32,000 bases of DNA from an uncultured Chloroflexia bacterium (GTDB lineage: Bacteria; Chloroflexota; Anaerolineae; Anaerolineales; Anaerolineaceae): assembly GCA_963704755.1 (NCBI GenBank), contig OY969938.1, forward strand, positions 4,710,001 to 4,742,000, read 5' to 3'. A program made the position numbers and the translations under genes. The first letter of the stretch is position 1; the number at the start of each line of letters is the position of its first letter. Positions 1 through 13,646 of the stretch are shown piece after piece. The notes under the pieces are model-generated. The model had not been told where the DNA came from and made no database searches. It saw only the letters and a program-made list of their open reading frames with translations.

Positions 1-1668
1 TACATGAAGGCCAAAGAGAACGGCACGAAATTTATCGTTATCGACCCGCTCAAGACCGATACTGCCGTCGCTTTGGAAGCTGATTGGTACCCGATTTACC
101 CCGGTACCGATACCGCTTTGATGGCTGCCCTGGCGCACGTCATGGTGACCGAGAACCTGTACGATAAAGACTTCATGGCCAAGTACTCCGTCGGTTTCGA
201 CGAAGATACCCTGCCAGAAGGTGCCCCGGCTAACAGTTCCTGGATGGCTTACATCATGGGCCAGGCCGACGGCGTCGAGAAGACCCCCGAATGGGCTTCC
301 CAGATCACCGGTTTGCCGGTAAACAGCATCAAACAATTGGCCCGCCAGATGGCCTCCGTGAAACCCTGCGCAATGTTCCAGGGTTGGGGCTGGAACCGCC
401 GGGCTTACGGCGAGCAGCCGTGCCGCGCTCTGCCGATCCTGGCTGCCATGACCGGCAACTTCGGTATCAGCGGTGGCGGCCCAGGTATGCGCCCCAGTGG
501 TATGAGCTTCAAGATCACAGGTTTTCCTGTCCCGGCCAACCCTGTCAAGGCCGTTATCCCGGTCTTCAAGTGGCCTGATTTCGTTACCCGTGGCAGCGAG
601 ATGACCTCCGGTCTGCAAGACATGATCCGCGGCGTGGACAAGCTGGATGCCAACATGAAGTTCATGATGAACTATGGCGGCAATACCCTCCTCAACCAGC
701 ACTCCGACATCAATGGCACCGCCAAGATGCTACAGGATGAATCCTTGCTGGAGTTCATCGTCACGATCGAAGTGCAGATGACCCCGAGTGCCAAATTCTC
801 GGATATCGTCCTGCCTGATACCACCGGTTTCGAATCCGACAACATCATTACCGGTGAGGGACACGGCGAAAAAGGCAACCATGCCTGGGTGTTATACAAC
901 CATGCAGTGATCGAGCCGATGTACGAATGCCAGCCTTCCCTGTGGATTGCTGAACAACTGGCCAATCGCCTCGGTATTGGCGATGATTTCCGCGATGGTC
1001 ACACCACTGCAGAAGACTGGACCAAAGACATAATCGCCTCGGCCCAGCAGAATTACCCCGACTTCCCGTCCGAAGACGAATTCAAGAAAGTAGGCATTTA
1101 CAAAGTTTCCAGCGACCAACCGGTTATTTCGTTTGCCGACTTCGTTGCCGATCCGGATGCCAACCCTCTGAAGACCCAAACCGGGAAAATCGAGATCTAT
1201 TCTCCGTACCTGGCGAGCCTCAATTCCCCCGATGATATTCCGGCCATCCCGAAATACATCCCCGAATGGGAAGGTGTCAGCGATCCGCTGAAGGACAAAT
1301 ACCCGCTGCTGATGGAAACGACCCACTGGATCGGTCGTTCGCACTCGACCTTTGACAATGTGGATTATCTCCGCGAAGCCCATCCCCAGTGCTTCTGGAT
1401 TAACCCCATCGATGCCGAAGCGCGTGGGATCAAGAACGGCGACATGATCAAGGTCTTCAATGACCGTGGCGAAGTTCACCTTCCGGCTTACGTAACGCTC
1501 CGTGTTCGCCCAGGCGTCACCAACATGCCTCAAGGCGGCTGGTACACTCCGGACAGCAATGGGGTCGATACTCGCGGTTGTGGCAATGTTTTGACCAAGT
1601 ATCAACCGACACCCTTCGCCAAGGGGAACCCGCAGCATACCAACCTGGTTCAGGTTGCAAAGCTTTAA
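1..1668 (+). CDS. dmsA: Molybdopterin (bis-MGD) oxidoreductase catalytic subunit, DmsA/YnfE-like; C-terminal ~555 aa only, 5' end lies outside the window
   Basis: The reading frame is open from base 1. It is paralogous along its length to the full-length TAT-dependent molybdoenzyme at 8581-11280 (for example KTPEWASQITG vs KTPEWASEICG, and the C-terminal GDMIKVFNDRGEV...PGV...GGW barrel). DmsB-like, DmsC-like and TorD-like genes follow it. Confidence 0.9.
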   Translation, partial: YMKAKENGTKFIVIDPLKTDTAVALEADWYPIYPGTDTALMAALAHVMVTENLYDKDFMAKYSVGFDEDTLPEGAPANSSWMAYIMGQADGVEKTPEWASQITGLPVNSIKQLARQMASVKPCAMFQGWGWNRRAYGEQPCRALPILAAMTGNFGISGGGPGMRPSGMSFKITGFPVPANPVKAVIPVFKWPDFVTRGSEMTSGLQDMIRGVDKLDANMKFMMNYGGNTLLNQHSDINGTAKMLQDESLLEFIVTIEVQMTPSAKFSDIVLPDTTGFESDNIITGEGHGEKGNHAWVLYNHAVIEPMYECQPSLWIAEQLANRLGIGDDFRDGHTTAEDWTKDIIASAQQNYPDFPSEDEFKKVGIYKVSSDQPVISFADFVADPDANPLKTQTGKIEIYSPYLASLNSPDDIPAIPKYIPEWEGVSDPLKDKYPLLMETTHWIGRSHSTFDNVDYLREAHPQCFWINPIDAEARGIKNGDMIKVFNDRGEVHLPAYVTLRVRPGVTNMPQGGWYTPDSNGVDTRGCGNVLTKYQPTPFAKGNPQHTNLVQVAKL

Positions 1669-1681
1669 GAGGAGATGAACC

Positions 1682-2317
1682 ATGGCTAAACAATATGCAT
1701 TTTATGTGAACCTCGAGGCCTGCTCGGGTTGTAAAGCCTGCCAGGTGGCCTGCAAGGATAAAAACGATCTTCCAGAAGGGCTGCGCTGGCGGCGTGTGAT
1801 GGAATACGAAAGTGGCCAATGGGTGCCGCAGGATGGTGACTTCATCCCCAGCAACGTTTCGGTCAGTTTCATCTCGACGGCCTGCATGCACTGCGAAGAT
1901 CCAATTTGTATGAAAGTCTGCCCGACCGAGGCCATCTACAAACGCGACGATGGCATCGTGTTGATCGACCAGACCCGCTGCGTTGGCTGCCGGTACTGCT
2001 CGTGGGCGTGCCCATACGGCGCTCCGCAGTGGAACCCGACCTCTGGCGTTATGACCAAATGCACTATGTGCAGCGACCTCGTCGATCAGGGCCAGCGCCC
2101 GGCTTGTGTCGAAGCCTGCCCGTTACGCGCCCTCGATTTCGGTACGCTCGATGAGCTTCAGGCGAAATATGGCACGTTCAATGATCCTGCCCCGTTACCC
2201 GATCCGTCCATCACTCACCCCTCGGTAGTTTATGGCCCTAACCAGAGTACTCAAAACTCGGATAAAGGCACCGGGCATATTATGAACCTGGAGGAGATTG
2301 CTAATGAACACGCATGA
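1682..2317 (+). CDS. dmsB: 4Fe-4S ferredoxin-type electron-transfer subunit, DmsB-like
   Basis: It has four Cys clusters (CSGCKACQVAC, CMHCEDPICMKVCP, CVGCRYCSWACP, CTMCSDL...ACVEACP). The start lies 13 nt after the dmsA stop and is preceded by GAGGAG. Confidence 0.9.
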   Translation: MAKQYAFYVNLEACSGCKACQVACKDKNDLPEGLRWRRVMEYESGQWVPQDGDFIPSNVSVSFISTACMHCEDPICMKVCPTEAIYKRDDGIVLIDQTRCVGCRYCSWACPYGAPQWNPTSGVMTKCTMCSDLVDQGQRPACVEACPLRALDFGTLDELQAKYGTFNDPAPLPDPSITHPSVVYGPNQSTQNSDKGTGHIMNLEEIANEHA

Positions 2318-3206
2318 GTGGGCGTTAATTGTCTTTACCATCCTGAACCAGCTTGCGGTTGGTTCGATGCTGGTCATGGTGATCCTGCACACTTATATCA
2401 CCAATAAAAAGGGTGCGGAACTGGCCAACAAAATAAGCAACAAGATCGTGTACTATATGGTACCGGTCGTGGTCGTCGCAACGCTGGCTTCCCTGTTCCA
2501 CCTGGGATACCCGCTGCATGCACCCTACGCAATTACTCACCTGGGTTCTTCCTGGTTGAGCCGCGAGATCCTTGGCGATCTGCTCTTCGCCGGCCTGGTA
2601 GTTGTGCTGGCCTTCCTGCAGTGGCGTAACCTTGGTTCTGCGAGCCTGCGGAAAGCACTTGCCTGGATTGCTGCGATTGTGGGCCTGGTTCTGGTGTACA
2701 TCATGTCCAGCGTCTACATGCTGCCGACTGAGCCCTACTGGAATACCTTCGCCACCCCGGTCCTGTTCTACTGCACCGCTTTCTTGCTCGGTTCACTGGC
2801 CGATGGCGTCATCCTGGCGCTCAGCAGCAAATCCGCGAACGCTGCGGATGAGTCCGGCCTGGTGCGGGATGCCATGCGCGGTATCGCAATCACCGCGATT
2901 GTCTTCCTGGGCATCGAGCTGGTCGTCACCCCCATCATGATTGCTTTTGTCTCGACAACCGGCGCTGCCGGTGTTGCCAGCGCTAATATGCTGATCGGAT
3001 CGTACGGTGTGCTGTTCGTCCTGCACCTGATCCTGGCCTTCATTGGCGCCGGTGTGTTCGGTGTGTTCCTCTATCGGAACGCCGTCAATAACGGCCACGA
3101 AAAGACTATTGCCTATCTCGCTTACAGCGCCTTCGCAATTGTCCTGGTAGCCGAAGTTTTGGGCCGCTTCCTGTTCTACGCCGCCCGCGTCCGCATCGGT
3201 ATCTAG
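2304..3206 (+). CDS. dmsC: DmsC-type integral membrane anchor subunit (8 predicted helices)
   Basis: The N-terminus MNTHEWALIVFTILNQLAVG matches the DmsC signature (HEWxL..FT...Q.AVG), and the protein is hydrophobic throughout. I chose ATG 2304 by analogy with the paralogue, which starts MNTREWAL at 11918. The ORF track starts at TTG 2298. Confidence 0.85.
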   Translation: MNTHEWALIVFTILNQLAVGSMLVMVILHTYITNKKGAELANKISNKIVYYMVPVVVVATLASLFHLGYPLHAPYAITHLGSSWLSREILGDLLFAGLVVVLAFLQWRNLGSASLRKALAWIAAIVGLVLVYIMSSVYMLPTEPYWNTFATPVLFYCTAFLLGSLADGVILALSSKSANAADESGLVRDAMRGIAITAIVFLGIELVVTPIMIAFVSTTGAAGVASANMLIGSYGVLFVLHLILAFIGAGVFGVFLYRNAVNNGHEKTIAYLAYSAFAIVLVAEVLGRFLFYAARVRIGI

Positions 3207-3228
3207 TTCGCGCAGATACTTAGGAGCT

Positions 3229-3271
3229 AAATTCCTGGGCGAGAAGGGTTTTCCTTCGAGCCCAGGAATTT
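3229..3271 (+). other. Intercistronic stem-loop between dmsC and the chaperone gene (12-bp perfect outer stem plus 5-bp inner stem)
   Basis: AAATTCCTGGGC (3229-3240) pairs with GCCCAGGAATTT (3260-3271). An inner GAAGG/CCTTC stem closes a GTTTT loop. No T-tract follows. Confidence 0.5.
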
Positions 3272-3526
3272 CCACCAAATTGAAATCGAAAACATTAATG
3301 GTAATCACGTTTTTGGATGTGAATTTTTTCGAGAAGAGGTATGCGTGGGAGGGTAACTTCCGTACGTGCACCTCTTTTGCGTCAATTTGTAACAGAATTT
3401 GTGCAGTGATGATTCGCTTGAAGAAACTCCAAAACCCGGTGCAAATGATTTCGCATAATCTTTTCTGGACCGTCAGGCTATTTCAAGAGATTCAATGATA
3501 TTTATATCTACAAAGAGGAAAATCAG

Positions 3527-4228
3527 ATGATGGCAATTTACGATAACGAAAAATGGACAGAAATGCTGACGGGTGAAAGTCTTCTGTTAGCAGTACTGGG
3601 GAAAATCCTCTACACTGCACCGAATCGGGATTGGCTGGAATCTTTGGTCCAGAGCGACCTTTTTGTCGAACCGCCCTTCGGTGAAAACCATCCTCTGGTT
3701 AAGCAGGGGTTCGAAATGATGCAGAATTGGTGCGCGCAGAATTCTGACAGGCTTTCGAAAGAAGAATATACTGCCCTTCAAGATGATTTTTTGCGTTTGT
3801 TTATTGGTTTAGACACGGTGCTTGCGCCTGTATGGGAATCGGTGTACTTCAACGAAGACCACCTGGTTTTCCAGCAACAAACCTTCGAGGTGCGTAACTG
3901 GTATCGCCGCTATGGCGCTGAGATCGAAAATTTCCGCAAAGAGCCGGATGATCATATTGGCCTGGAACTTATTTTTGTGGCCTACCTGGCTCAACGTGCG
4001 TTGGAAGACCTGAATAATCAAGACGAATCTTCTTTCGAAGAAAACATTACCGCCCAGCGCCAGTTTATGGACGAACATTTGCTTCGATTTGCCCCTGCCT
4101 GGTACGACCTGGTCGAGGAGCATGCCAAAACAACTTTTTACCAGGCAATTGGATATATAATTCGCGGGGCTTTACAATCAGCCGAAGAAATGTTAAAGGC
4201 GGATATTAAAGAAGGAGCGGCTGCGTGA
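3527..4228 (+). CDS. TorD/DmsD-family redox-enzyme maturation chaperone
   Basis: It is 233 aa and carries the family-typical F.RLF.G..........ES.Y and EPDDHIGLEL..... motifs. It sits directly after dmsABC, and GAGG precedes the ATG. Confidence 0.85.
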   Translation: MMAIYDNEKWTEMLTGESLLLAVLGKILYTAPNRDWLESLVQSDLFVEPPFGENHPLVKQGFEMMQNWCAQNSDRLSKEEYTALQDDFLRLFIGLDTVLAPVWESVYFNEDHLVFQQQTFEVRNWYRRYGAEIENFRKEPDDHIGLELIFVAYLAQRALEDLNNQDESSFEENITAQRQFMDEHLLRFAPAWYDLVEEHAKTTFYQAIGYIIRGALQSAEEMLKADIKEGAAA

Positions 4229-5430
4229 ACTTTGTCTCGGCTGCGGATCGGTTAGCATCTTTTATGCGCCCGGATATCGTCCTTGATCCGACCCGGTGTT
4301 TCTACAGCACGGATCGATTTTCAAGCTGCCAGGCGTGCTACGATGTTTGCCTGGCAGAAGCGATCCTGCCCGGGAAACCACCGCGTTTGGACGAGAATAA
4401 ATGCCAGGGCTGTTCGGCCTGCTTACCGGTTTGTCCGCGTGAGGCTTTTCAGTCAAACGATACCATAGAACCGTTGATGTCTGCGGTAAAACGCGGGCCT
4501 GCGCCCGAATTGGACCTGTTTTGCACCCGAAATCCCAATGGGAAAGTCGGCCCGGCTGAGAGCGCCGGCTATCGGGTTGAAGGCTGCCTGGCCGGGCTGG
4601 GAGCCGGATCGTACATGCGTCTCGTCTCGATGGGTTTCCGGCGGGTTTCGGTCCGCTTGGATGCTTGCCAGGACTGCCCGTGGAGTTCGCTCAGCCAGCG
4701 TGTGGAAGGCCAGGTTGACATGGCTAAAAAGATGCTGGCCATGTGGGGCAAAGAAGATGCGCTTGTTTCAGTTGCGGAGTTAGACCAGCCGCTGGAACGT
4801 CCCTTGTGGGACAAGGAAACCAACCAAAAAGGGATTTCCCGCCGCGATTTCTTCCGGACGCTCATTCCAATCGCGCAGGAAAACGATCAGGCGGATTTGC
4901 AGAATAAACGAGCCATCGCAAATGGGGAAAGATTGGGCCGGGAGCGGCTGCGCCTCCTGCAGGCCACCGTGAGCCTGGACACGCCCGCAATCGATTCACC
5001 TGAATTCCTCGAGCGCCTGGATTTTGCCACACTTACGATCTCGGAGGAGTGTACGGTTTGCCAGGCCTGTGCCCGTGTCTGCCCTACCCGTGCGATCCGT
5101 TACGCGACCGACCAGGCTGAAACGAGATACCAGCTCAATTTCCTGGCCGAAGCCTGTATCGGTTGCGAGGCATGCCTTCACGTTTGTAATCCCGCGGCTA
5201 TTCATATTAATCACACCCCCTTGCCTTCCGAGGTTTTCGCCTCCGGTGAGGTGAAGACCTTATGGCAAGGAAAATTAGCGCGTTGCGAGCGCTGTCACGG
5301 CACATTTGGCGCCCAGGAAGGCAAACGAATGTGTCCGTCCTGTGAATACCGGGCCAGCCATCCCTTTGGTTCGATGTTCCCTATTAATGGTAAGGGTATG
5401 CCAATACCCCCAGAAAAGAAAGAGAAGTAA
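4225..5430 (+). CDS. Multi-cluster 4Fe-4S ferredoxin-domain protein (NapF-like candidate maturation ferredoxin) with a C-terminal Cys4 ribbon
   Basis: The GTG start overlaps the chaperone stop (GTGA). Motifs are CQGCSACLPVCP, CTVCQACARVCP, CIGCEACLHVCNP and a terminal CERCHG...CPSCEY. There is an internal SRRDFFR twin-arginine-like motif at aa 205-211. Confidence 0.8.
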   Translation: MNFVSAADRLASFMRPDIVLDPTRCFYSTDRFSSCQACYDVCLAEAILPGKPPRLDENKCQGCSACLPVCPREAFQSNDTIEPLMSAVKRGPAPELDLFCTRNPNGKVGPAESAGYRVEGCLAGLGAGSYMRLVSMGFRRVSVRLDACQDCPWSSLSQRVEGQVDMAKKMLAMWGKEDALVSVAELDQPLERPLWDKETNQKGISRRDFFRTLIPIAQENDQADLQNKRAIANGERLGRERLRLLQATVSLDTPAIDSPEFLERLDFATLTISEECTVCQACARVCPTRAIRYATDQAETRYQLNFLAEACIGCEACLHVCNPAAIHINHTPLPSEVFASGEVKTLWQGKLARCERCHGTFGAQEGKRMCPSCEYRASHPFGSMFPINGKGMPIPPEKKEK

Positions 5431-5434
5431 CCCC

Positions 5435-6757
5435 ATGATTATCGACCTGGATGAACGAACCATTAGCGAAGTCCGCAATCCTGATTTAAAATCCTATGCT
5501 GGAAAATATATCCAGATTTATCAAGATTTTATGCAGCAGGTCAGCCAGACGGGCATCGACGTTGACCCGCTGGATGACCGCGAGCAAGCTGCTGAAAAGC
5601 GGGCGATCCTGAAAAAAAAGGGCGTCCAGGTTCGTAACGATTCGAAAAGCCTGTTTCTCAATCGCATTTCGCCGGCCTGCCAGGCTTGCCAGAACGGCGT
5701 CGGCTCGGCGACATTTTTTGTGTCGTTACGCTGCCACAGAAACTGCTTTTATTGTTTCAACCCCAATCAGGAAGATTACGAATATTACCAGCAGAATAAT
5801 CGTGACCTGCCGGCCGAGCTGAAACAACTCCGCGAACAAGGTGAACGGCTGCGCTTCGCCGCTTTGACCGGTGGTGAGCCTTTGCTTTTCAAACCGGAAA
5901 CGATGGATTTCTTCAAGAATGCGCGCGACGTATTTCCGGGGGTATACACCCGGTTGTACACCAGCGGTGACCAGATCGACGAAAGCACGTTGCAAGATTT
6001 GAAGGATGCCAGGCTGGATGAGATTCGTTTTAGCATCCGCATGTACGACCTGGCCAAAGGCCGCGATGCGACCATCAACCGGATCGCCCTGGCGCGGAAG
6101 TACATCCCCAACGTGATGGTCGAGATGCCGGTTCTGCCCAACACCCTGGAAGAGATGAAGGAAATTTTGACCCGCCTGGACCAGCTCGGCATTTTTGGGA
6201 TCAACTTGCTGGAATTTTGTTATCCTTATCATAATGCCAACATCTTCCGCATGAAAAATTACAAGGTCAAGCCGCACCCCTTCCGGGTTCTATACGACTA
6301 TTGGTACGCTGGTGGGTTGCCGGTAGCCGGCAGCGAAATGGAATGCCTGGACCTGCTGGATTTCGCCGTGGAATCGAAAATGAAAATGGGCGTCCATTAC
6401 TGCTCGCTGGAAAACAAACACACCGGCCAGATGTTCAAGCAAAACAGTGAAATCCGCCTGCCGGGAGTGTATTCCTTCTCGCAAAAAGATTATTTCATCA
6501 AATCGGCTAAGGTGTTCGGCGACGATATTCCACTGGTGTTGGATACCTTCAAGAAAGATGGATTCAAAAATTACCAGCTCAATCAGGAACATGGGTACCT
6601 TGAATTTTCGCTCGACAAAGTGGCGGCAATCCGGAATTTGGATGTCGAAGCAGGCCTGGCTTATTATGTGTGCGAAACCAGGGAAGGGGATCAATATTTA
6701 CGGGAACTCAAAGTAGATTTGATCGACCCGCAAAAGATGCATATGTCTGACTTCTAA
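5435..6757 (+). CDS. Radical SAM enzyme of unknown specificity
   Basis: It carries the CX3CX2C motif (CHRNCFYC), preceded by an extra CQACQ pair and followed by a GGEPLL SAM-binding motif. ATG 5435 lies 4 nt after the upstream stop. The track start at 5306 would overlap the ferredoxin gene by 125 nt. Confidence 0.85.
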   Translation: MIIDLDERTISEVRNPDLKSYAGKYIQIYQDFMQQVSQTGIDVDPLDDREQAAEKRAILKKKGVQVRNDSKSLFLNRISPACQACQNGVGSATFFVSLRCHRNCFYCFNPNQEDYEYYQQNNRDLPAELKQLREQGERLRFAALTGGEPLLFKPETMDFFKNARDVFPGVYTRLYTSGDQIDESTLQDLKDARLDEIRFSIRMYDLAKGRDATINRIALARKYIPNVMVEMPVLPNTLEEMKEILTRLDQLGIFGINLLEFCYPYHNANIFRMKNYKVKPHPFRVLYDYWYAGGLPVAGSEMECLDLLDFAVESKMKMGVHYCSLENKHTGQMFKQNSEIRLPGVYSFSQKDYFIKSAKVFGDDIPLVLDTFKKDGFKNYQLNQEHGYLEFSLDKVAAIRNLDVEAGLAYYVCETREGDQYLRELKVDLIDPQKMHMSDF

Positions 6758-6832
6758 TTTGAAGATTACCCGTCAGTCGTTTGGAAACTTTTTTAAAAGA
6801 AGTAGTTAAGAACGTTGGGAGATAAACAAACA

Positions 6833-7480
6833 ATGGATCTCATCCTAGGGCAAACCCCATTTTCGGAAATTTTGGTAAAGTCGGCCGAACAGCATAAGCA
6901 TATTTGCCCGCGCCAGATTCTGGGCGTGAGAATGGGTTTGTATGCCGGCCAGCTCTTGAATCTTGAGCTGCCCGATTTGAAGAAACGCCTGTACGCGTTT
7001 GTGGAAACGAACGGCTGCATGCTGGATGGAATTGTGGCCGGCACCGGCTGTGCAGTCGGCCGGCGGACGATGTACATTTATGATTTTGGCAAGATGGCGG
7101 CCACGTTTGTTGATTCACAGACCCAACAGGCTGTGCGAATTATACCCAGCTCACAATCCAGAAAATTGCGCGATCAGTATGCCCCCAAGGATCTAGGCCG
7201 CTGGCCGTCCTATGTTTATGCGTACCAGATCGCACCCCAGGAAGAGTTGTTCGTGACCCAGTCGGTCAAGCTGACCGTCTCTTTAGAGGCGCTCATCAGC
7301 CACGAGACGGCCCGGGCCGTGTGTGAGCGCTGTGGCGAAGAAATAACGAACGAACGCGAAGTCCATCAAAACGGTAAGGTACTTTGCCGGTCTTGCGCCG
7401 GTGAAGCTTATTATGCAGTAGAAAGCAGCGACGTTGAACCGGAATATTTATCGCGGGTCAACGCGGGTGTAAATAATTAA
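6833..7480 (+). CDS. FmdE-family protein with a C-terminal zinc ribbon
   Basis: HICPRQILGVRMG and NGCMLDGIVAGTGCAVGRR match the FmdE-domain signatures, and the C-terminus has CERCGEE...CRSC. ATG 6833 is preferred over TTG 6815. Confidence 0.8.
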   Translation: MDLILGQTPFSEILVKSAEQHKHICPRQILGVRMGLYAGQLLNLELPDLKKRLYAFVETNGCMLDGIVAGTGCAVGRRTMYIYDFGKMAATFVDSQTQQAVRIIPSSQSRKLRDQYAPKDLGRWPSYVYAYQIAPQEELFVTQSVKLTVSLEALISHETARAVCERCGEEITNEREVHQNGKVLCRSCAGEAYYAVESSDVEPEYLSRVNAGVNN

Positions 7481-7572
7481 TCCCGCTGATAGGAAAGAAC
7501 TTCAAATTCGGGAACGTCTTGCATAAGCGCGTTTTACTAATCCGGAACGAATTGTATAATTAGCAGGTGTTA

Positions 7573-8199
7573 ATGAAACTTAGCGTCATTATTCAAGCAG
7601 GTGGTGAATCTCGTCGTATGGGCTGCAATAAAGCCCTGGTGCCTTTCATGGGCCAGCCGATGATCCAACGGGTAATCGCGCGGGTTGCTCCCGTAGCGGA
7701 TGAGCTACTGATTACCAGCAACCAACCCGAAGACCTGGCCTTTTTACAGTTCCCGGCTTACACCGACCTGGTCCCTGGCCGGGGAGCCCTGGTGGGACTG
7801 TACACAGCCTTGAGTATTGCCCATTTCCCGCTGGTGGCGGTGGTTGCCTGTGATATGGCGTTTGCTAATTTCGCTATTCTGGCCGCCGAGCGAGATATGC
7901 TGTTGGCCCAAGACGCCGATGCAGTAGTACCACAAACCAATTGTGGCTATGAACCCTTCCACGCAATCTATCGCCGGGAAGAATGCCTGCAAGCGGTCAA
8001 GACAGCCCTGGATGCGGGTTATAAACGGGCCAATTCCTGGTACAAGAACGTCAAAATGGTGCCTTTTACGGCTCAGCAAATTGCCCGGTACGATCCGCAA
8101 GGCGAGGCATTTATCAATATTAATACTCCCGAGGAATTGGCCTATGCCACCAAAATGGTCCTGGACCAATCGATGGAGAAAGTTCCCCAGGCAGCTTAG
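7573..8199 (+). CDS. mobA: Molybdenum cofactor guanylyltransferase
   Basis: The N-terminus LSVIIQAGGESRRMG..KAL matches the LAGG.S.RMG motif. The protein is about 208 aa with an internal ACDMAF motif. Confidence 0.9.
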   Translation: MKLSVIIQAGGESRRMGCNKALVPFMGQPMIQRVIARVAPVADELLITSNQPEDLAFLQFPAYTDLVPGRGALVGLYTALSIAHFPLVAVVACDMAFANFAILAAERDMLLAQDADAVVPQTNCGYEPFHAIYRREECLQAVKTALDAGYKRANSWYKNVKMVPFTAQQIARYDPQGEAFININTPEELAYATKMVLDQSMEKVPQAA

Positions 8200-8258
8200 T
8201 CCGGCAACCACGCCTGCACCCGGCGTTTAATCTGCATACGGGTGATCACAATCAAGGG
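8185..8258. repeat. 74-bp direct repeat, copy 1 (last 15 nt of mobA plus 59 nt downstream)
   Basis: 69 of 74 positions are identical to 13815-13888 at a constant offset of 5630 nt. All 5 mismatches are transitions. Confidence 0.85.
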
Positions 8259-8580
8259 GGATATGGTTAAAAACCGAGAATATACTCATTAATTAAACAC
8301 TCCAACGGGTGAGACCGAACCACACTGGCGAGGGTTTTGGTGAAAGTTAAGACGACGTATATTCTGATTGTGCAAAAATGGTAGAGAAAACGATACTGCC
8401 CGAATTAAAGCCGAGAGAGAAATTGCTGTCGTGCAGTAACGTTTACGCTCAATCCAGTCACAATCGGGAGGGGTTATCAGAATAAAAAATATACCTGTCT
8501 AACTCTCATGAAATTTGTCTGCAAATATTGAATAACCCATTAGGCAAGAACGAAAAGTGTTTTCACTCGGAGGAGAATTT

Positions 8581-11280
8581 ATGAAAAATAACAATTTCCT
8601 CACCAAGGCTCTGACAGAAACAGCCATTACTCGGCGAAGTTTCCTGAAATGGAGTGCCATCCTGGGTGGAACAACCGCACTTGCGGGGGGGCTGAAATTT
8701 GGCTTGAAGCCTGCGAAAGCCGATGATACAGCTCAAGATGCAGGTCAATGGATTCCTGTTGCCTGCTGGCATAACTGCGGCGGTCGCTGTTTGAACGTAG
8801 CCCTGGTGAAAGACGGCGTGGTTATCCGCCAGAAAACCGATGACACGCACCCTGATAGCCCGGATTTTCCGCAGCAGCGCGGCTGCCAGCGTGGACGTTC
8901 ACAACGTCATCAGGTGTTTGGCGTTGACCGCATCAAATACCCCATGAAGCGTAAGAATTGGGCTCCCGGCGGCGGCAATAAAGATTTACGTGGTGTTGAT
9001 GAGTGGGTGCGTATTTCCTGGGATGAAGCGCTGGATATTGTGGCGAGCGAAATCAAAAGTGTCAAAGATAATTATGGCAACACGGCTTTCTTCACCCCCC
9101 GCGGCAATAGCAAACTCCTCAATCTCTATGGTGGAGAAACCGGTTCTTACGGCGTAACTTCGGATGGTGCCTGGCCTCTGGTCCAAACCATGATGTCCGG
9201 TAGCTTATACGCCGCAAACGACCGCCTGGATCTTCGCAACGCCAATTTGATCGTTCTTTGGGGGTCTGACCCTGCCTGGAGCAGCGCCGGAAATCCCAAT
9301 TACAATTATTTGCAGGCCAAGAGGGCAGGGGCGAAATTCATTCTTGTGGATCCGTATTACAACGCCACAGTACAAAGCCTGGCCGACGAATGGATCCCCG
9401 TGAGGCCGTCTACCGATGCGGCTCTCTTGCTCGGTATGGCCTACCATATGATCACCCACAACCTGCAGGACCAGGATTTCCTGGATAAATACGCCCTCGG
9501 TTTCGATGCCGATCATATGCCCGATGGTGCCGATCCGCAGGGCAGCTTCAAGGATTACGTCCTGGGCACCTACGATAACACTCCCAAGACACCCGAATGG
9601 GCCTCCGAGATTTGTGGTACCCCTCCGGATGTGATCCGCGATTTTGCCCAGGAAATTGCCACCACCAAACCGATGGTTTTCCAATCCTCGTCGGCTGCAG
9701 CTCGAACTTATCTTGGCCAGCAGTTCTGCCAGGCATTCCTGACCGTGGGCTGGATGACTGGTAACGTAGGCTTTTCAGGTGGTGGTGTCTTCCACAACTA
9801 CCACAGTGCGGCCAGCTACGGTGGCGCTACACTGGTGAAACCCGGATCGGCCGGATTGCCAGGTGTGCCAAATCCTCTCTGCCCGAATGGAGATGGCTAT
9901 GGCTTTGCCAAGCCTGAAGAAGCGGGTAGTCATCTTGTGGTTTACGAAGAGAGTTGGGATGCCATTCTGAATGGCGCATACACCTCACTACAAGGAACAA
10001 TGGATGAGGCGAACGCGGATGGCAAGATCCCAGTCGATATCCGATTGCTGTACATTGTCCGTGATGGTAACGGCGGAAATGCATTAAACCAATCCGCTGG
10101 TATTCCCAAGGGCATTGAGGCCTTCAGGAAAGTGGATTTCGTTGTAACCAACGATATTGTTCTCTCGACGGTGTCCAAGTACGCCGATGTGGTTCTACCC
10201 TCGACGACACCTTGGGAACAAGACTTTGGTGGTTTCTTGACCGGTAACCCAGAAATGTTGCTCTGGTACAACCAGGTCACCGAGCCGCTTTTTGAAGCTC
10301 GCGACTCACAATGGATCGAAAGTCAATTAGCCACTCGGTTGGGCTTGGACCCGAATGCCCTCTTCCCCATTTCGCGGACCCAGCAGGTGTTCAACCAATT
10401 GGCGGGCGCCACGGTGATCAAAAATGACGGCTCCGATTACGAACCTTTGGTGACGATTACCGCTGACGACATCCAGAAACTTGGCGTCGATGGCAAACCT
10501 CAACAAGGCCGGATCACCTTTGATGAACTCAAGACCAAGGGCGTGTACCAGGTAGAACACCACCCTGGAGATGCATTCGGATTTGTCTCCGGTAAGGATT
10601 TCCGCGACGATCCGGAGGCCAATCCCATTTCGACGGCCAGCGGTAAGCTGGAAATCTATTGCCAGGCACTTTCGGATAAGATCGCAGCTTATCGCCTTTC
10701 TACCTGCCCACCGATTGCCCAATATCGAAAACCGGTCGAAGGTTACGAAGATACCTTTGCCGATTGGGATAAAAAGATCAAAGGCGATTATCCTTTACAG
10801 ATGGTCACCATTCACTATCCTCGCCGCAGCCACTCGGTATTCGACAACATCAGCAATTTGCGCCGTGCTTACCCCCAGGAAGTAATGATGAACACCCTGG
10901 ACGCCCAGGAACGCGGTATCAAATCGAACGACTATGTTCAGGTATCCAGTCGCTGGGGTAAAGTCCTGCGCCCGGTGTTTGTGTCTGACAAGGTGCTCCC
11001 CGGTGTGGTAATGATCGGTGAAGGCGCCTGGGTCGAGATGGACGAGACGCTTGGAATCGATAAGGCCGGGGCAACCAACATGTTGAACGGCACCCATCCG
11101 ACCGGCCAGGGCGAAGAACCGTGGAACTCCTGCAATCTCCAGGTGGAGAAATGGACCGGTGCCTCGCTGGAGGAAGACTATAAGTGGCCACACCGTGTAC
11201 CTATCAAGGACTCAACGGACGCTGTTGCGGACGATTGGCATCTGGAGCCCGATGTGATTAACCCCTTAAAGGATGCGTAA
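8581..11280 (+). CDS. dmsA: TAT-exported molybdopterin oxidoreductase catalytic subunit, DmsA/YnfE-like (paralogue 2)
   Basis: It has a twin-arginine signal (TRRSFLKWSAILGG...AKA) and an FS0 motif (CWHNCGGRC...C). GGAGGAG precedes ATG 8581. It is 899 aa, with a tail of about 45 aa that paralogue 1 lacks. Confidence 0.92.
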   Translation: MKNNNFLTKALTETAITRRSFLKWSAILGGTTALAGGLKFGLKPAKADDTAQDAGQWIPVACWHNCGGRCLNVALVKDGVVIRQKTDDTHPDSPDFPQQRGCQRGRSQRHQVFGVDRIKYPMKRKNWAPGGGNKDLRGVDEWVRISWDEALDIVASEIKSVKDNYGNTAFFTPRGNSKLLNLYGGETGSYGVTSDGAWPLVQTMMSGSLYAANDRLDLRNANLIVLWGSDPAWSSAGNPNYNYLQAKRAGAKFILVDPYYNATVQSLADEWIPVRPSTDAALLLGMAYHMITHNLQDQDFLDKYALGFDADHMPDGADPQGSFKDYVLGTYDNTPKTPEWASEICGTPPDVIRDFAQEIATTKPMVFQSSSAAARTYLGQQFCQAFLTVGWMTGNVGFSGGGVFHNYHSAASYGGATLVKPGSAGLPGVPNPLCPNGDGYGFAKPEEAGSHLVVYEESWDAILNGAYTSLQGTMDEANADGKIPVDIRLLYIVRDGNGGNALNQSAGIPKGIEAFRKVDFVVTNDIVLSTVSKYADVVLPSTTPWEQDFGGFLTGNPEMLLWYNQVTEPLFEARDSQWIESQLATRLGLDPNALFPISRTQQVFNQLAGATVIKNDGSDYEPLVTITADDIQKLGVDGKPQQGRITFDELKTKGVYQVEHHPGDAFGFVSGKDFRDDPEANPISTASGKLEIYCQALSDKIAAYRLSTCPPIAQYRKPVEGYEDTFADWDKKIKGDYPLQMVTIHYPRRSHSVFDNISNLRRAYPQEVMMNTLDAQERGIKSNDYVQVSSRWGKVLRPVFVSDKVLPGVVMIGEGAWVEMDETLGIDKAGATNMLNGTHPTGQGEEPWNSCNLQVEKWTGASLEEDYKWPHRVPIKDSTDAVADDWHLEPDVINPLKDA

Positions 11281-11283
11281 ACT

Positions 11284-11916
11284 ATGGCCAAACAATTAGC
11301 TTTTCATGTTGACCCGAGTGTGTGCATTGGCTGCAAGGCTTGCCAGATCGCCTGCCAGGATAAAAACGACCTGCCGCCTCAAATTCTTTGGCGACGTGTG
11401 TTCCATTACGGCGGTGGAAACTGGGTTTCAGACTCTAGTATTCCCAATCTCTATCGGGCCAGTAATGTTTACTCCTATTCCATTTCTGTGTCTTGCATGC
11501 ACTGCCAAAACCCGATTTGTACCGAGGTTTGCCCCACGGAAGCTATGCACAAACGCGAAGATGGCGTTGTTGTAATCGATGACACCAAGTGCGTTGGCTG
11601 CCGGTATTGCGAATGGGCCTGCCCCTACGGCGCTCCTCATTTCGACCAGGCCTCAGGCGTAATGACCAAATGCAACTTCTGCGAAGACCTGCTTGCCCAA
11701 GGCGAGAACCCGGCCTGCGTGGATGCATGCCCAATGCGTGCGATCGATTTTGGTGAGCTGGATGACTTGCGCCAGAAATATGGTGACGTCGACGCAATCG
11801 AGCCGTTGCCGGAATCCAGCTATACTCATCCCTCCCTGGTAATCACGCCCAATAAAAACGCTCAACCGAGCGGCAGCGGAACCGGCAAGATCCTGAACCT
11901 GCTGGAGGAGTTGTAA
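11284..11916 (+). CDS. dmsB: 4Fe-4S electron-transfer subunit, DmsB-like (paralogue 2)
   Basis: It carries the same four Cys clusters as 1682-2317 and is roughly two-thirds identical to it by eye. Confidence 0.9.
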   Translation: MAKQLAFHVDPSVCIGCKACQIACQDKNDLPPQILWRRVFHYGGGNWVSDSSIPNLYRASNVYSYSISVSCMHCQNPICTEVCPTEAMHKREDGVVVIDDTKCVGCRYCEWACPYGAPHFDQASGVMTKCNFCEDLLAQGENPACVDACPMRAIDFGELDDLRQKYGDVDAIEPLPESSYTHPSLVITPNKNAQPSGSGTGKILNLLEEL

Positions 11917-11917
11917 A

Positions 11918-12838
11918 ATGAATACTCGTGAATGGGCTCTGATCGCTTTTACAATTTTGAACCAGTTGGCCGTGGGCTCCTTCCTGATCCTGACCATCGT
12001 TCGCGCCTATGCCCTCAAAAAGAAGGGCGAGGACCAGGCAAACCTCTTGACCGACCGGGCTTATCTCGCCCTTATCCCAGTGGTAGGTGTTGCAGTTCTT
12101 GTTTCCCTTCTCCACCTGGGTAATCCGATCAATGCTCCGCACGCAATCGCAAACCTGGGAAGTTCGTGGCTTAGCCGTGAAATTCTCTTCGATCTACTCT
12201 TCGCTGCCCTGGTTCTTGTCTTTGGCGTCCTACAGTTTTGGAAGATTGCTTCTTCTGAACTTCGCAATGTCATTGCCTGGGTAACCGTAGTTGTTGGATT
12301 GGTTTTGGTTTTCATCATGGCAAGTGTGTACATGCTGCCGACCGATCCCTCCTGGAACAGTGCCGCAACTCCCCTGGCATTCTATTCGACCGCATTCTTG
12401 CTGGGTTCGCTTGCCACGGGTGTGGCCTTTGCAGCCAATTATGCCTATGTACAACGCGGCAAACCGGATTGCGCTAGCGATCAGTGCGACCTTTTGCGGG
12501 ACACAACTCGCGGAATTTCTATTACGGCGATCGTCTTCCTTGGTGTGGAGCTTGTTACTCTACCCATGTACCTTTCCAGCCTGGCTTCAGGTGGGGCGGC
12601 AGCCCAATCGAGTGTTCAGCTCATGGTGGGTTCCTTCACCGCACTATTTGTTCTGCGCCTGATTCTGGGTTTCGTCGGGGCGGGCATTCTGGGTCTGTTC
12701 CTCTATCGTTCCGCAGTCGATGCCGGACGTGAAAAGGTTTTGAGCTATCTGGTTTATAGCGCATTTGCTCTTGTGCTTATAGCCGAGGTTATGAACAGAT
12801 TCTTGTTCTATGCCACCCGTGTTAGAATCGGTATCTAA
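11918..12838 (+). CDS. dmsC: DmsC-type membrane anchor (paralogue 2)
   Basis: The N-terminus is MNTREWALIAFTILNQLAVG. The protein is polytopic and its C-terminus (RFLFYA.RVRIGI) matches paralogue 1. Confidence 0.85.
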   Translation: MNTREWALIAFTILNQLAVGSFLILTIVRAYALKKKGEDQANLLTDRAYLALIPVVGVAVLVSLLHLGNPINAPHAIANLGSSWLSREILFDLLFAALVLVFGVLQFWKIASSELRNVIAWVTVVVGLVLVFIMASVYMLPTDPSWNSAATPLAFYSTAFLLGSLATGVAFAANYAYVQRGKPDCASDQCDLLRDTTRGISITAIVFLGVELVTLPMYLSSLASGGAAAQSSVQLMVGSFTALFVLRLILGFVGAGILGLFLYRSAVDAGREKVLSYLVYSAFALVLIAEVMNRFLFYATRVRIGI

Positions 12839-12868
12839 AATTGCCGTAAATTGCCGGTAACAAAATCA

Positions 12869-12907
12869 TCGTCTGGGGCAAAGGGTAAATTCCTTTGCTC
12901 CAGACGA
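12869..12907 (+). other. Intercistronic stem-loop between dmsC2 and its chaperone gene (16-bp stem with one G-T pair)
   Basis: TCGTCTGGGGCAAAGG (12869-12884) pairs with CCTTTGCTCCAGACGA (12892-12907) across a 7-nt loop. CTTTG follows the stem. Confidence 0.5.
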
Positions 12908-12944
12908 CTTTGTGGTTATTCCAAGTATCAATGAGGTAAAAGGC

Positions 12945-13646
12945 ATGAAATCGGATAACGCTAATCTGGGTTGGGAAACAATGTTGACCGGAGAGAGTTT
13001 GTTGCTAGGTGTATTGGGTAAAATGATCTACACCTCTCCGGAACGCGATTGGCTGGAGGACTTAGTCCAAGGCGACCTCTTCTCAGAAATACCATTTGCT
13101 GAGAATCAACCCCTGGTTCAGAAAGGTTTCGAGACGATGCAAGCCTGGTGCCTGGAGAATAAAAGTGGGTTGTCCGATCATGCACTGCAAGACCTGCAAC
13201 AGGATTTTTTGCGACTATTCATTGGCCCGGGTAAGGTTCTAGCACCTGCCTGGGAATCAGTGTATTTTAGCGAAGATCGTCTGGTTTTTCAGGAACAAAC
13301 GCTGCAAGTACGCCAATGGTATCGTCGTTACGGCGCTGAAATAGAGCATATCCATAAAGAGCCGGATGATCACATTGGCCTGGAACTAATCTTTGTGGCA
13401 TATCTGGCGCAGCGTGCCTTGGATGATTTTCAACAAAATGATGAAACTGCTTTCGAAGAAGATATTCATGGCCAACGCCAATTTCTCATGCAACATTTGT
13501 TGCGTTTTGCTCCGAATTGGTACGATCTGGTAGAAAAGCATGCGCATACGGGGTTTTATCGTGCGTTAGGGCAACTAATTCGCGGATCGCTGCAAACCGT
13601 TGCCGAAATGTTAAAAATTGATGTGAGTGAAGTGAAGTTGGAGTGA
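12945..13646 (+). CDS. TorD/DmsD-family chaperone (paralogue 2)
   Basis: It aligns with 3527-4228 over its full length, for example LTGESLLL.VLGK and EPDDHIGLELIFVAYLAQRAL. ATG 12945 was chosen because GAGG lies upstream. Confidence 0.85.
   Translation: MKSDNANLGWETMLTGESLLLGVLGKMIYTSPERDWLEDLVQGDLFSEIPFAENQPLVQKGFETMQAWCLENKSGLSDHALQDLQQDFLRLFIGPGKVLAPAWESVYFSEDRLVFQEQTLQVRQWYRRYGAEIEHIHKEPDDHIGLELIFVAYLAQRALDDFQQNDETAFEEDIHGQRQFLMQHLLRFAPNWYDLVEKHAHTGFYRALGQLIRGSLQTVAEMLKIDVSEVKLE

Follow-up and report, generated by a model that had tools for sequence, protein, structure and literature searches.

A radical SAM protein and a polyferredoxin linked to a TorD-type chaperone as a candidate maturation module for DmsA-type molybdoenzymes

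We analysed a stretch of 32,000 nucleotides from an uncultured Chloroflexia bacterium (contig OY969938.1, positions 4,710,001 to 4,742,000; hereafter the window), in which all the genes described below lie on the + strand. The first of them is dmsA type 1, a catalytic subunit gene that is partial, its 5' end falling outside the window (1..1668; 690 bits to TIGR02166, dmsA_ynfE, over the 554 aa present, with PF00384 and PF01568). It is followed by dmsB, encoding a four-cluster Fe-S subunit (1682..2317; TIGR02951, 233 bits, above the cut-off of 214), the membrane anchor gene dmsC (2298..3206; PF04976, 102.5 bits) and the gene for TorD1, a TorD/DmsD-type Tat-leader-binding chaperone (3527..4228; PF02613, 97.6 bits) whose best NCBIfam match is DmsD, at 97 bits and under the cut-off of 162. 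The first-pass annotation had placed four co-oriented genes after dmsABC and this chaperone, and open reading frames and profile searches confirm them at the positions first noted: a polyferredoxin of 401 aa (4225..5430; Fer4 family matches), a radical SAM protein of 440 aa from an uncharacterised family (5435..6757), an FmdE-family protein of 215 aa (6833..7480) and a MobA-like molybdenum cofactor guanylyltransferase of 208 aa (7573..8199). The GTG start of the polyferredoxin gene and the TorD1 stop overlap by 4 nt, the radical SAM gene starts 4 nt past the polyferredoxin stop, and gaps of 75 and 92 nt precede the FmdE and MobA-like genes, respectively. Identical protein sequences with identical start codons are already on record as called genes for all four. 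A second dmsABC-torD operon, absent from the earlier annotation, lies directly downstream (8581-13646). It encodes a divergent, DmsA/YnfE-like type 2 DmsA with a Tat leader (8581..11280; TIGR02166, 505 bits, under the cut-off of 778), which is 33% identical to type 1, and, as assigned from open reading frames and translations, DmsB2 (11284-11916), DmsC2 (11918-12838) and TorD2 (12912-13646; 115 bits to the DmsD model and 68% identical to TorD1).

The radical SAM protein carries SPACQACQNG and, further on, LRCHRNCFYCFNP; in profile searches it matches PF04055 and PF13353 only. It reaches no family cut-off in NCBIfam, and its placement outside well-characterised families holds, as no curated NCBIfam family fits. 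An AlphaFold2 model of the protein (pLDDT 94.4) matched only generic radical SAM cores in the PDB, with no solved structure matching beyond the core; SuiB and PqqE are among the best structural and sequence matches. The C-terminal domain (residues 338-440; 6446..6757), modelled alone with AlphaFold2 at pLDDT 94.9, has the topology beta-alpha-beta-beta-alpha-beta-beta and a single conserved cysteine, and it resembles no PDB structure significantly (best E-value 0.18). Within the PF04055 match lies the Cx3Cx2C motif (C100, C104 and C107; 5732..5755). Across 31 diverse homologues C104 and C107 never vary and C100 is kept in 90% or more, and in a 12-sequence alignment all three are invariant. Shortly before this motif, a CxxC pair (C82 and C85; 5678..5689) is invariant both in the same 31 homologues and in distant relatives outside molybdoenzyme contexts. 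Homologue alignments further single out H321-Y322-C323 (6395..6403), within GVHYCSLENK: C323 and K328 are invariant, and H321 and Y322 are shared by 90% or more of the DmsABC-linked clade. Our guess from these alignments is that C82, C85 and C323 are candidate ligands of an auxiliary cluster site. More distant relatives of the protein occur in contexts without connection to molybdoenzymes, and the DmsABC linkage is therefore limited to one clade. One distant homologue, in which the invariant residues recur, sits near PqqD, a 48-aa open reading frame and other radical SAM genes, although this neighbourhood holds four other radical SAM genes that are equally possible PqqD partners.

The polyferredoxin has two 2x[4Fe-4S] domains, one N-terminal and one C-terminal, separated by a middle domain in which four cysteines are conserved, and it ends in a CxxC...CxxC tail; cysteine conservation was read from a 63-sequence alignment. 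The family alignment also reveals a twin-arginine-leader-like motif inside the protein, ISRRDFFR at residues 204-211 (4834..4857), which recurs as [LIV]SRRDLFR in almost all of the 63 sequences, including those of Moorella and of the distant locus L086. It is of the same kind as the twin-arginine-like motif of E. coli NapF, whose N-terminus starts VKIDASRRGILTGR. The label "NapF-like" under which the polyferredoxin was first described stands for architecture and falls for family membership: the C-terminal half has the NapF layout, with Fe-S motifs behind a vestigial twin-arginine motif, whereas the protein scores 36 bits against TIGR00402 (cut-off 102) and its BLASTP alignment with NapF is restricted to the Fe-S motifs. 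Residues 18-331 are homologous to the radical SAM-paired polyferredoxin of a Mucispirillum-type locus, and at locus L003 two gene calls cover the polyferredoxin, which is split about half-way.

We surveyed 80 loci from the closest relatives, mostly of class Anaerolineae, so that locus counts are not counts of independent events; 39 loci, each from a different species, are fully flanked by 10 kb on either side of the radical SAM gene. In these 39, genes within 10 kb include TorD in 39, DmsB in 38, DmsA and DmsC in 37 each, and the polyferredoxin in 32, and individual gene maps are consistent with the counts. TorD lies at most 2.5 kb upstream of the radical SAM gene in 57 of 64 loci, the polyferredoxin directly upstream in 48 of 64, and a TatA-TatC-TatA set downstream in 35 of 70. 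The conserved core is TorD-polyferredoxin-radical SAM, often with TatA-TatC-TatA after it. The proposed synteny of the module with molybdoenzyme operons elsewhere is thus borne out, the radical SAM gene being strongly linked to DmsABC/TorD operons in other genomes. DmsABC-linked copies are also present in Neomoorella and Moorella, Salisediminibacterium beveridgei has the order TorD-DmsA-DmsB-DmsC-radical SAM, and members of the radical SAM family are found in Coriobacteriaceae and Mucispirillum too. At locus L090 the radical SAM and polyferredoxin genes stay paired away from DmsABC. Some loci (including L048, L052, L054, L068, L069 and L076) have no polyferredoxin, which therefore cannot be obligatory.

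The radical SAM and FmdE pair, earlier regarded as a unit set between the chaperone and MobA, did not survive the same comparison, with FmdE present in 16/39 and MobA in 2/39 of the fully flanked loci. The FmdE protein is a clear member of the FmdE/FwdE family (PF02663, 93.5 bits), with an alpha+beta core, a C-terminal treble-clef-type C4 zinc ribbon (PF01258, 31 bits) and 2gvi as its best PDB relative. Like other members it is encoded beside molybdo-/tungsto-pterin enzyme genes, but the enzyme to which it is linked, facultatively, is a DmsA-type reductase and not formylmethanofuran dehydrogenase. The function of the family is not established, and some members carry a molybdopterin-binding PF00994 domain as a fusion (PMC2954224). 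In the loci inspected, FmdE adjoins MoaA/MoaD/MoaE or transporter genes; at L002 and L003, MoaA, MoaD, MoaE and FmdE are clustered just downstream. The MobA-like protein (PF12804, 106.5 bits) scores 98.8 bits against TIGR02665, under the cut-off of 151.85, and at L086 a MobB-MobA fusion gene stands between the radical SAM and polyferredoxin genes. FmdE and MobA belong to a looser molybdenum-cofactor supply branch of the locus, outside the conserved core.

TorD-family chaperones bind twin-arginine leaders. Full-length homologues of the radical SAM protein with a C-terminal PF02613 domain form three 50%-identity clusters (P0134, P0152 and P0182), and these natural fusions to TorD provide independent support for a role in maturation. 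Type 1 and type 2 DmsA genes both adjoin the radical SAM gene in other genomes, making type 2 a second candidate client. In Anaerolineae, the leaders of the two types are almost identical, against only ~33% identity between the mature proteins, and both types have the FS0 cysteine motif CxHNCGGRC. An alignment of the DmsA N-terminal region revealed no candidate modified residue.

Counting the synteny, the linkage across phyla, the fusions, the pairing of radical SAM protein and polyferredoxin away from DmsABC, the leader-like features, the Tat genes, the PqqD neighbourhood of a distant homologue and the precedent of Eggerthella, we propose that the segment probably encodes a cytoplasmic module devoted to maturing the Tat-exported DmsA-type molybdoenzymes whose genes flank it, with TorD, the polyferredoxin and the radical SAM protein as its core. 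The general claim that the latter is a maturase coupled to TorD is one we make with considerable confidence, while our preference for the DmsA polypeptide as its target is tentative. Against the maturation reading stands E. coli DmsA, to which type 1 DmsA orthologues in related loci show 45-52% identity and whose maturation involves no such radical SAM enzyme; the DmsA N-terminal alignment, with no candidate modified residue, weighs the same way. In the mechanism that we propose, TorD would bind the DmsA precursor at its twin-arginine leader, and the radical SAM protein would be recruited to the TorD-precursor complex, as suggested by translational coupling, near-universal adjacency and the natural fusions. 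The polyferredoxin could use the leader-like LSRRDLFR motif it carries to dock, and give the electron for reductive SAM cleavage; the 5'-deoxyadenosyl radical, with the putative auxiliary site C82/C85/C323, would then modify the chaperone-held precursor ahead of Tat export.

TorD would here act much as the PqqD-type leader-recognition elements of peptide-modifying radical SAM maturases do. In PqqE/PqqD, SuiB and other RiPP maturases, the radical SAM enzyme likewise has a small partner protein, separate or fused, that binds the N-terminal leader of the substrate, and the anaerobic sulfatase maturase is an example of a radical SAM enzyme that modifies a protein. Unlike the RiPP maturases, the protein in the window has neither a SPASM nor a twitch domain, its putative substrate is an enzyme of 800-900 aa instead of a short peptide, and its recognition element would be a TorD/NarJ-family chaperone, a role in which, to our knowledge, such chaperones have never been described.

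The main alternative is that the radical SAM protein acts on the just-made Mo-bis-MGD cofactor (its pterin, guanine nucleotide or metal sphere) while this is held by MobA or TorD. The MobA gene in the same gene string, the MobB-MobA fusion at L086, the MoaA-MoaD-MoaE-FmdE clusters of L002 and L003 and the PF00994 fusions of some FmdE proteins all fit such a role, as does the candidate three-cysteine site that we read from the alignments, which resembles the small-molecule-binding type. Auxiliary sites of three cysteines that leave one iron open, such as that of MoaA, typically bind small molecules. MoaA, the GTP 3',8-cyclase of the first molybdenum cofactor step, shares with our protein the radical SAM fold class, a relation to molybdoenzymes, an N-terminal Cx3Cx2C motif and a second three-cysteine cluster, which in our protein is putative. 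The first-pass view that the protein is nevertheless not MoaA-like stands: it scores 21.9 bits against TIGR02666 (cut-off 284), lacks the Mob_synth_C domain and its cysteine motif, and draws its candidate auxiliary cysteines from the CxxC before the SAM motif and the single cysteine in HYCSLENK, and related loci encode a normal MoaA besides it. A parallel in concept is the "tungsten cofactor oxidoreductase radical SAM maturase" of NCBIfam model TIGR04317, whose gene is tied to another pterin-cofactor enzyme, aldehyde:ferredoxin oxidoreductase, and whose chemistry is uncharacterised. Both the enzyme family and the client differ from ours, and we know of no coupling of the TIGR04317 family to a TorD chaperone or Tat export; the window protein has no match to the model at E below 0.01, and only distant relatives score 36-45 bits (cut-off 380). 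Linkage to MobA is also rare, the catalytic residues are conserved in relatives without molybdoenzyme neighbours, and E. coli enzymes closely related to type 1 DmsA use ordinary bis-MGD in the absence of such an enzyme. We regard action on the cofactor as unlikely, if still worth weighing against modification of the DmsA polypeptide.

Less probable still, to the point of being doubtful, is that the polyferredoxin and the radical SAM protein serve Fe-S delivery or reductive activation in the manner of NapF, either building or repairing the FS0 [4Fe-4S] cluster or reducing the cofactor or the enzyme in advance, with no covalent modification. NapF is implicated in the maturation of NapA, and the Nap system also has a cytoplasmic multi-cluster ferredoxin, whose twin-arginine-like motif does not lead to export, and a leader-binding chaperone, NapD, both in the service of one Tat-exported molybdoenzyme. 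The Nap system has no radical SAM partner, and in our polyferredoxin the motif lies mid-protein, behind an extra N-terminal ferredoxin domain and the cysteine-containing middle domain. The NapF layout of the C-terminal half of the polyferredoxin and the FS0 motif of both DmsA types agree with this, and Foldseek matches include the cluster-handling radical SAM enzymes NifB and LipA; these concern the generic core only, and PFL-AE, viperin and SuiB match at least as well. However, the polyferredoxin stays far below the NapF cut-off, and several loci have the radical SAM gene without the polyferredoxin. Moreover, we know of no molybdoenzyme Fe-S insertion pathway that requires radical SAM chemistry.

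That the radical SAM protein is metabolic, making or transforming a small molecule tied to the reductase substrate, product or quinone partner and co-located through co-regulation only, is highly improbable: it would accommodate the unknown substrates of both reductases, the sensor kinase and response regulator genes upstream in related loci (consistent with a substrate-induced regulon) and the distant relatives in non-molybdoenzyme contexts, but a TorD-type domain fused to the protein in three divergent clusters and a position between the chaperone and dedicated Tat genes are hard to explain for a metabolic enzyme, and the two DmsA types to which it is linked, being 33% identical, probably have different substrates.

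Our literature search found no published description of a TorD-linked radical SAM/polyferredoxin module, and the occurrence of both proteins travelling with TorD in several bacterial phyla points to an undescribed step in the maturation of DMSO-reductase-type molybdoenzymes. Dependence on cluster-specific accessory genes is seen in the DMSO-reductase-family enzymes of Eggerthella, which show no activity on expression in E. coli (PMC11887054). The catechol dehydroxylases of the Gram-positive Eggerthella lenta are likewise accompanied by a TorD-like chaperone and ferredoxins, but their accessory set (DadhD-H) has no radical SAM enzyme and comprises instead a protein with a helicase domain, a hypothetical protein and ferredoxins that span the membrane (PMC11887054).

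The first 13,646 nucleotides of the window (1-13646) form a single long run of co-oriented genes on the plus strand, as seen in the ORF listing and profile searches. The run opens with a partial gene for a DmsA catalytic subunit, here called type 1, whose 5' end lies beyond the window (1-1668), followed by dmsB (1682-2317), dmsC (2298-3206) and the gene for a TorD/DmsD-type chaperone, TorD1 (3527-4228). A 401-amino-acid polyferredoxin (4225-5430) begins at a GTG codon and has a 4-nt overlap with the stop of the torD gene, and a 440-amino-acid radical SAM (rSAM) protein is encoded 4 nt further on (5435-6757). Genes for an FmdE protein with a zinc ribbon (6833-7480) and a MobA-like protein (7573-8199) follow after gaps of 75 and 92 nt, respectively. 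The first-pass annotation had described the last four of these genes as one string, and its description is borne out in all details, including the CQACQ and CHRNCFYC motifs of the rSAM protein; the proteins of the window, start codons included, are already on record as called genes. A scan of the entire window against Rfam gave no match, including to the Moco riboswitch sought in the gap ahead of the second dmsA. Promoter and terminator scans of positions 3000-8700 gave signals no higher than shuffled sequence, and the operon structure is therefore based on gene spacing alone.

Directly after this module, behind a gap of about 357-381 nt, lies a complete second dmsABC-torD operon (8581-13646, plus strand), consisting of dmsA type 2 (8581-11280), dmsB2 (11284-11916), dmsC2 (11918-12838) and the gene for the chaperone TorD2 (12912-13646). 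A single rSAM/polyferredoxin set thus has candidate client enzymes on both sides, an arrangement also found in Neomoorella (locus L054).

The rSAM protein belongs to the radical SAM superfamily, which is recognized by a Cx3Cx2C motif for the SAM-cleaving [4Fe-4S] cluster and a partial TIM-barrel core with a GGE motif, and it scores 59.6 bits against PF04055 (cut-off 29.5) in the Pfam profile search. Pfam assigns it only the generic Radical_SAM and Fer4_12 domains, and in the curated NCBIfam library nothing scored above its family cut-off, the top model being PqqE with 40.6 bits against a required 381. The protein therefore stands outside the characterized families, in agreement with the earlier failure to assign it to a described system. 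MoaA, the GTP 3',8-cyclase, is defined by the TIGR02666 cut-off and by a C-terminal Mob_synth_C domain (PF06463) with a three-cysteine auxiliary cluster motif; with 21.9 bits against 284 and no match to PF06463, this identity can be ruled out, and the earlier view that the architecture is not MoaA-like was correct. Glycyl-radical activases such as PFL-AE and NrdG (models TIGR02493, TIGR02494, TIGR02491 and TIGR02495) are likewise ruled out, by scores of 18-27 bits against cut-offs of 126-232. Such activases are expected to be small (~150-300 aa) and to have a glycyl-radical enzyme partner, whereas the 440-residue rSAM protein has additional N- and C-terminal domains, and neither the window nor the inspected loci contained a glycyl-radical enzyme gene. 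A SPASM/twitch maturase of the PqqE, anSME or SuiB-like kind is rejected on the PqqE score and on the presence of a single conserved cysteine (C323) beyond the core, as opposed to a cysteine-rich C-terminal SPASM/twitch domain with one or two auxiliary clusters. The model for the radical SAM maturase of tungsten-cofactor oxidoreductases (TIGR04317, cut-off 380 bits) was not among the matches of the window's rSAM protein at E up to 0.01.

Residues conserved throughout the family comprise S79, C82 and C85 (a CxxC pair), C100, C104, C107, E196, R198, E230, N257, E260, S300, C323 and K328, all strictly invariant except C100, which is absent from one of 31 diverse homologues; the GGE motif (G146-G147-E148) is also invariant. 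Three of the conserved cysteines (C82, C85 and C323) lie outside the SAM motif, which suggests a putative auxiliary metal site with one position open. A PDB sequence search recovered only BtrN, Tes and PqqE, in each case through the rSAM core and with E-values no better than 3e-4; the similarity is limited to the first ~100 residues of that core. An AlphaFold2 model built from the 31 homologues (pLDDT 94.4) superposes on rSAM cores, and a Foldseek search with the full model returned generic cores only (SuiB, a DUF512 protein, NifB, PFL-AE, viperin and LipA; query-normalized TM-score ≤0.41). The C-terminal 103 residues form a separate domain with the order beta-alpha-beta-beta-alpha-beta-beta; modelled by itself (pLDDT 94.9), this domain had no significant match in a fold search of the PDB, where the lowest E-value was 0.18.

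The polyferredoxin has one classical 2x[4Fe-4S] ferredoxin domain at its N-terminus and another at residues ~270-325. Its middle domain carries four conserved cysteines, and its tail has the pattern CxxC...CxxC. Its most conspicuous feature is an [LIV]SRRDLFR motif at residues 204-211, nearly invariant in an alignment of 63 family members, which corresponds to a twin-arginine consensus placed mid-protein with no hydrophobic export segment after it. The polyferredoxin peptide bearing this internal leader-like motif reads NQKGISRRDFFRTLIPIAQ, and the form found in most members, NPPLSRRDLFRMMAKQGQVALA, resembles the DmsA Tat leader. The first-pass annotation had called this protein NapF-like, and for the layout that holds: E. 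coli NapF begins with VKIDASRRGILTGR followed by its Fe-S motifs, and the C-terminal half of the polyferredoxin therefore shares the order of twin-arginine motif and then Fe-S motifs, although here the motif is internal. Membership in the NapF family does not hold. NapF proteins are ~160 aa long, carry a vestigial twin-arginine motif at the N-terminus ahead of the Fe-S motifs and exceed 102.2 bits on TIGR00402; the 401-residue polyferredoxin reaches 36.3 bits, and in BLASTP against NapF the cluster motifs alone align. In the related locus L003, the polyferredoxin is called as two genes with a break about half-way along.

More than 2,500 rSAM homologues were found in a word-indexed search, and the best 120 are all 440-441 aa long, 56-81% identical to the window's protein and mostly from metagenome-assembled genomes (MAGs) of Anaerolineales/Chloroflexota. 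An exhaustive search of 50%-identity representatives gave 1,173 clusters at E up to 1e-3, of which 148 also passed a threshold of 1e-30. Named members occur in Coriobacteriaceae, Salisediminibacterium beveridgei and Mucispirillum, as well as in Neomoorella and Moorella, and judged by family membership rather than genome context the family is present in four phyla. When the window's proteins were searched against 80 loci from species-representative genomes, 39 loci were fully flanked, and within 10 kb of the rSAM gene we found TorD in 39/39, DmsB in 38/39, DmsA and DmsC in 37/39 each, the polyferredoxin in 32/39, TatC in 19/39, FmdE in 16/39 and MobA in 2/39, counts that overstate independence, the loci being those of the closest relatives and mostly of one class. 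TorD lies at most 2.5 kb upstream of the rSAM gene in 57 of the 64 loci with enough upstream sequence, and the polyferredoxin lies directly upstream in 48 of them. Four long contigs have a common order, in which [sensor kinase-DmsC-like-response regulator]-DmsA-DmsB-DmsC-(large WD40 protein)-TorD leads into polyferredoxin-rSAM-TatA-TatC-TatA-...-FmdE-(MoaA/MoaD/MoaE or transporter genes). Other orders are TorD-DmsA(type 2)-DmsB-rSAM-DmsA(type 1)-DmsB-DmsC in Neomoorella, TorD-DmsA-DmsB-DmsC-rSAM in Salisediminibacterium and, for a member 34% identical to the window's, rSAM-MobB/MobA fusion-polyferredoxin. In a Mucispirillum-type locus, the rSAM gene is still paired with that of a homologous polyferredoxin (residues 18-331 aligned, E = 8e-22); DmsABC was not found within 10 kb of this pair.

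Genome context thus ties TorD, the polyferredoxin and the rSAM protein, as one conserved unit, to DmsABC-type operons in two or more phyla, and the synteny with molybdoenzyme operons expected of the module is present in other genomes. The first-pass annotation had proposed a dedicated maturation module made of the rSAM and FmdE proteins between a chaperone and MobA. Comparative genomics lends good support to a predicted dedicated maturation role, and it moves the core of the module from rSAM, FmdE and MobA to TorD, polyferredoxin and rSAM.

FmdE and MobA form a looser cofactor-supply neighbourhood of this unit. The FmdE protein is a member of PF02663 (93.5 bits against a gathering score of 22.9) with a C-terminal zinc finger, an optional feature of the family (31 bits on the zf-dskA_traR model), and alignment to the structure 2gvi shows conservation of HKHICP / HGHKCP and NGC, corresponding to the HxHxCP ... 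NGC core motif. The function of this family has not been established (PMC2954224). FmdE is enriched near the module and adjoins Moa or transporter genes in the loci inspected. In locus L004 (12792-17890), it ends a string of genes for an NTPase, a double ABC ATPase, a methyltransferase, a small Oxidored_molyb-domain protein and a CbiQ-like transporter component, and in L003 the genes after it are those for an ABC permease and MoaA; these neighbours hint at a role in metal or cofactor supply. The MobA-like protein is probably MobA, judging from its QAGGESRRMG version of the N-terminal nucleotide-binding motif LAGGxxxRMG and from 106.5 bits on PF12804, above cut-off, though it stays below the equivalog threshold (TIGR02665, 98.8 bits against 151.85).

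The likely clients are of two kinds. DmsA/YnfE proteins are recognized by more than 777.7 bits on TIGR02166, a Tat leader, an FS0 cysteine motif and a serine ligand to Mo. DmsA type 1, which reaches 690 bits over just the 554 aa present, below the cut-off, is likely a member of this subfamily. DmsA type 2 carries a Tat leader, a CxHNCGGRC motif and an aligned Ser, and scores 505 bits over its full length, which by the cut-off places this divergent protein outside the subfamily. The two are 33% identical to each other in the window, type 1 being 45-52% and type 2 31-36% identical to E. coli DmsA, and across loci both types adjoin the rSAM gene. TorD1 is a member of PF02613 (TorD/DmsD/NarJ; 97.6 bits against 22.2), a family encoded with Tat-dependent or Nar-type molybdoenzymes, and its gene stands beside dmsABC; its scores on the equivalog models for DmsD and TorD, 97 against 162 and 57 against 132 bits, place it in neither subfamily. 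TorD1 and TorD2 are 68% identical. In Anaerolineae, the Tat leaders of the two DmsA types are almost identical (consensus M-SEKNFLTKALTDTVLTRRSFLKWSAALGGTAALAGG) while the mature proteins share ~33% identity, a pattern that would fit one shared leader-binding chaperone. In Moorella, a lipobox-like LTLAGC after the twin-arginine motif of DmsA type 2 (L054_6806 and L083_2517) suggests that this enzyme may be a Tat-exported lipoprotein.

The strongest available argument for physical cooperation of the rSAM protein and the chaperone is their fusion in three separate protein clusters, P0134 (675 aa), P0152 (652 aa) and P0182 (653 aa; 41 member sequences), in each of which a full-length rSAM homologue, 36-42% identical to the window's, precedes a chaperone domain of the TorD/NarJ type (PF02613). 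No fusion of this kind is mentioned in a survey of NarJ-family chaperones; the fusion gene followed to its genomic position lies at a contig end, which hides its surroundings.

Taken together, we consider it highly probable that the rSAM protein is a chaperone-coupled maturase. The DmsA precursor would reach the rSAM enzyme through TorD, leader-binding by family. Electrons would come from the polyferredoxin as dedicated reductant, perhaps docked on TorD by way of the leader-like motif, and the radical-mediated modification would precede export by dedicated Tat genes. Two observations speak against a maturase: E. coli needs no such enzyme to mature its own DmsA, a close homologue of type 1, and no candidate modified residue emerged when rSAM-linked DmsA proteins were aligned with E. 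coli DmsA over their N-terminal 260-300 residues. As to what is modified, we tentatively favour the DmsA polypeptide, at somewhat less than even chances. The bis-MGD cofactor is a somewhat less likely target, and the remaining probability falls to Fe-S delivery, reductive activation or something else. A purely metabolic role of the rSAM protein is unlikely in light of the fusions. The proposal in its full form is a speculative one, which we hold with considerable doubt: a TorD-family chaperone would act as the leader-recognition element for an rSAM enzyme, and this enzyme would modify a Tat-exported member of the DMSO reductase family, or its bis-MGD, covalently in an undescribed way. Many Chloroflexota species would have this pathway, as would some Bacillota, Actinomycetota and Deferribacterota.

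Relatives only 21-25% identical to the window's rSAM protein retain its length and all the invariant residues and sit in other contexts. One from an Oscillospiraceae MAG adjoins a second rSAM gene and hypothetical genes, and another lies near PqqD, a 48-aa ORF, ScmC and several B12-rSAM genes. This makes the DmsABC-linked proteins a single clade within a wider uncharacterized family, for which the PqqD context points, weakly, to peptide or protein substrates. In P0216 (738 aa), an N-terminal rSAM homologue is fused to a second, HxsC-like radical SAM domain, which also suggests that the wider family takes part in maturation systems with several rSAM enzymes.

In the current view, cofactor synthesis (Moa, Moe, Mob), a TorD/NarJ-type chaperone, the general Fe-S machinery and Tat are sufficient to mature enzymes of the DMSO reductase family. 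Full-text literature searches found no paper tying an rSAM enzyme other than MoaA to this process, and what would be new here is the addition of an uncharacterized radical SAM component to a molybdoenzyme maturation system. Several known systems are near in concept without being the same: NapF/NapD, the nearest for a ferredoxin and chaperone; TIGR04317, an uncharacterized rSAM "maturase" of tungsten aldehyde oxidoreductases; leader-guided rSAM maturases such as PqqE/PqqD; and the catechol dehydroxylases of Eggerthella, whose cluster-specific accessory genes are essential and which are inactive in E. coli (PMC11887054). If the rSAM protein is physically tied to the chaperone, a new chemical step would enter the maturation scheme of the family, amounting either to its first radical-mediated protein modification or to a new cofactor variant. 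The module could then partly explain why many non-proteobacterial DMSO-reductase-family enzymes have not been made active in E. coli, and it would provide a concrete gene set to co-express with enzymes from Chloroflexota, Firmicutes or Actinobacteria that fail in standard hosts, a difficulty already described for the catechol dehydroxylases of gut bacteria (PMC11887054).

The related loci also contain further genes. A dedicated TatA-TatC-TatA set, which the window lacks at this position, lies directly 3' of the rSAM gene in 35 of the 70 loci with enough downstream sequence (L002 11338-12529, L003 11339-12535, L004 11338-12535), and a WD40 beta-propeller protein of ~1,000 aa, absent from the window, is encoded between dmsC and torD (L002 5072-8137, L003 5111-8131) in 18 of the 39 fully flanked loci. 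Upstream of dmsA in related loci (L001 574-3538, L004 1-3481, L002 1-800, L003 1-682), a gene for a 306-aa DmsC-like membrane protein has a histidine kinase gene on one side and the gene for a GerE-type response regulator on the other; here, a homologue of the quinol-oxidase anchor may have been co-opted for sensing. Three loci with rSAM proteins 53-58% identical to the window's are labelled as Desulfobacterales, SAR324 and Bathyarchaeota MAGs (L024, L062 and L074), and they represent either mis-binned contigs or horizontal transfer of the module.

Beyond the second operon, positions 14120-18706 of the window contain genes for an MFS transporter, a divergently oriented Fur-family regulator, a 1-Cys peroxiredoxin and a DUF1361 membrane protein, which are ordinary and have no evident link to the maturation module. 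Positions 19347-25110 hold a heterodisulfide-reductase-like electron-transfer module, with an MvhD/FlpD-like protein, two HdrA-like FAD/Fe-S proteins (456 and 685 aa), a membrane protein with an N-terminal dicluster ferredoxin domain and a DsrE-like protein.
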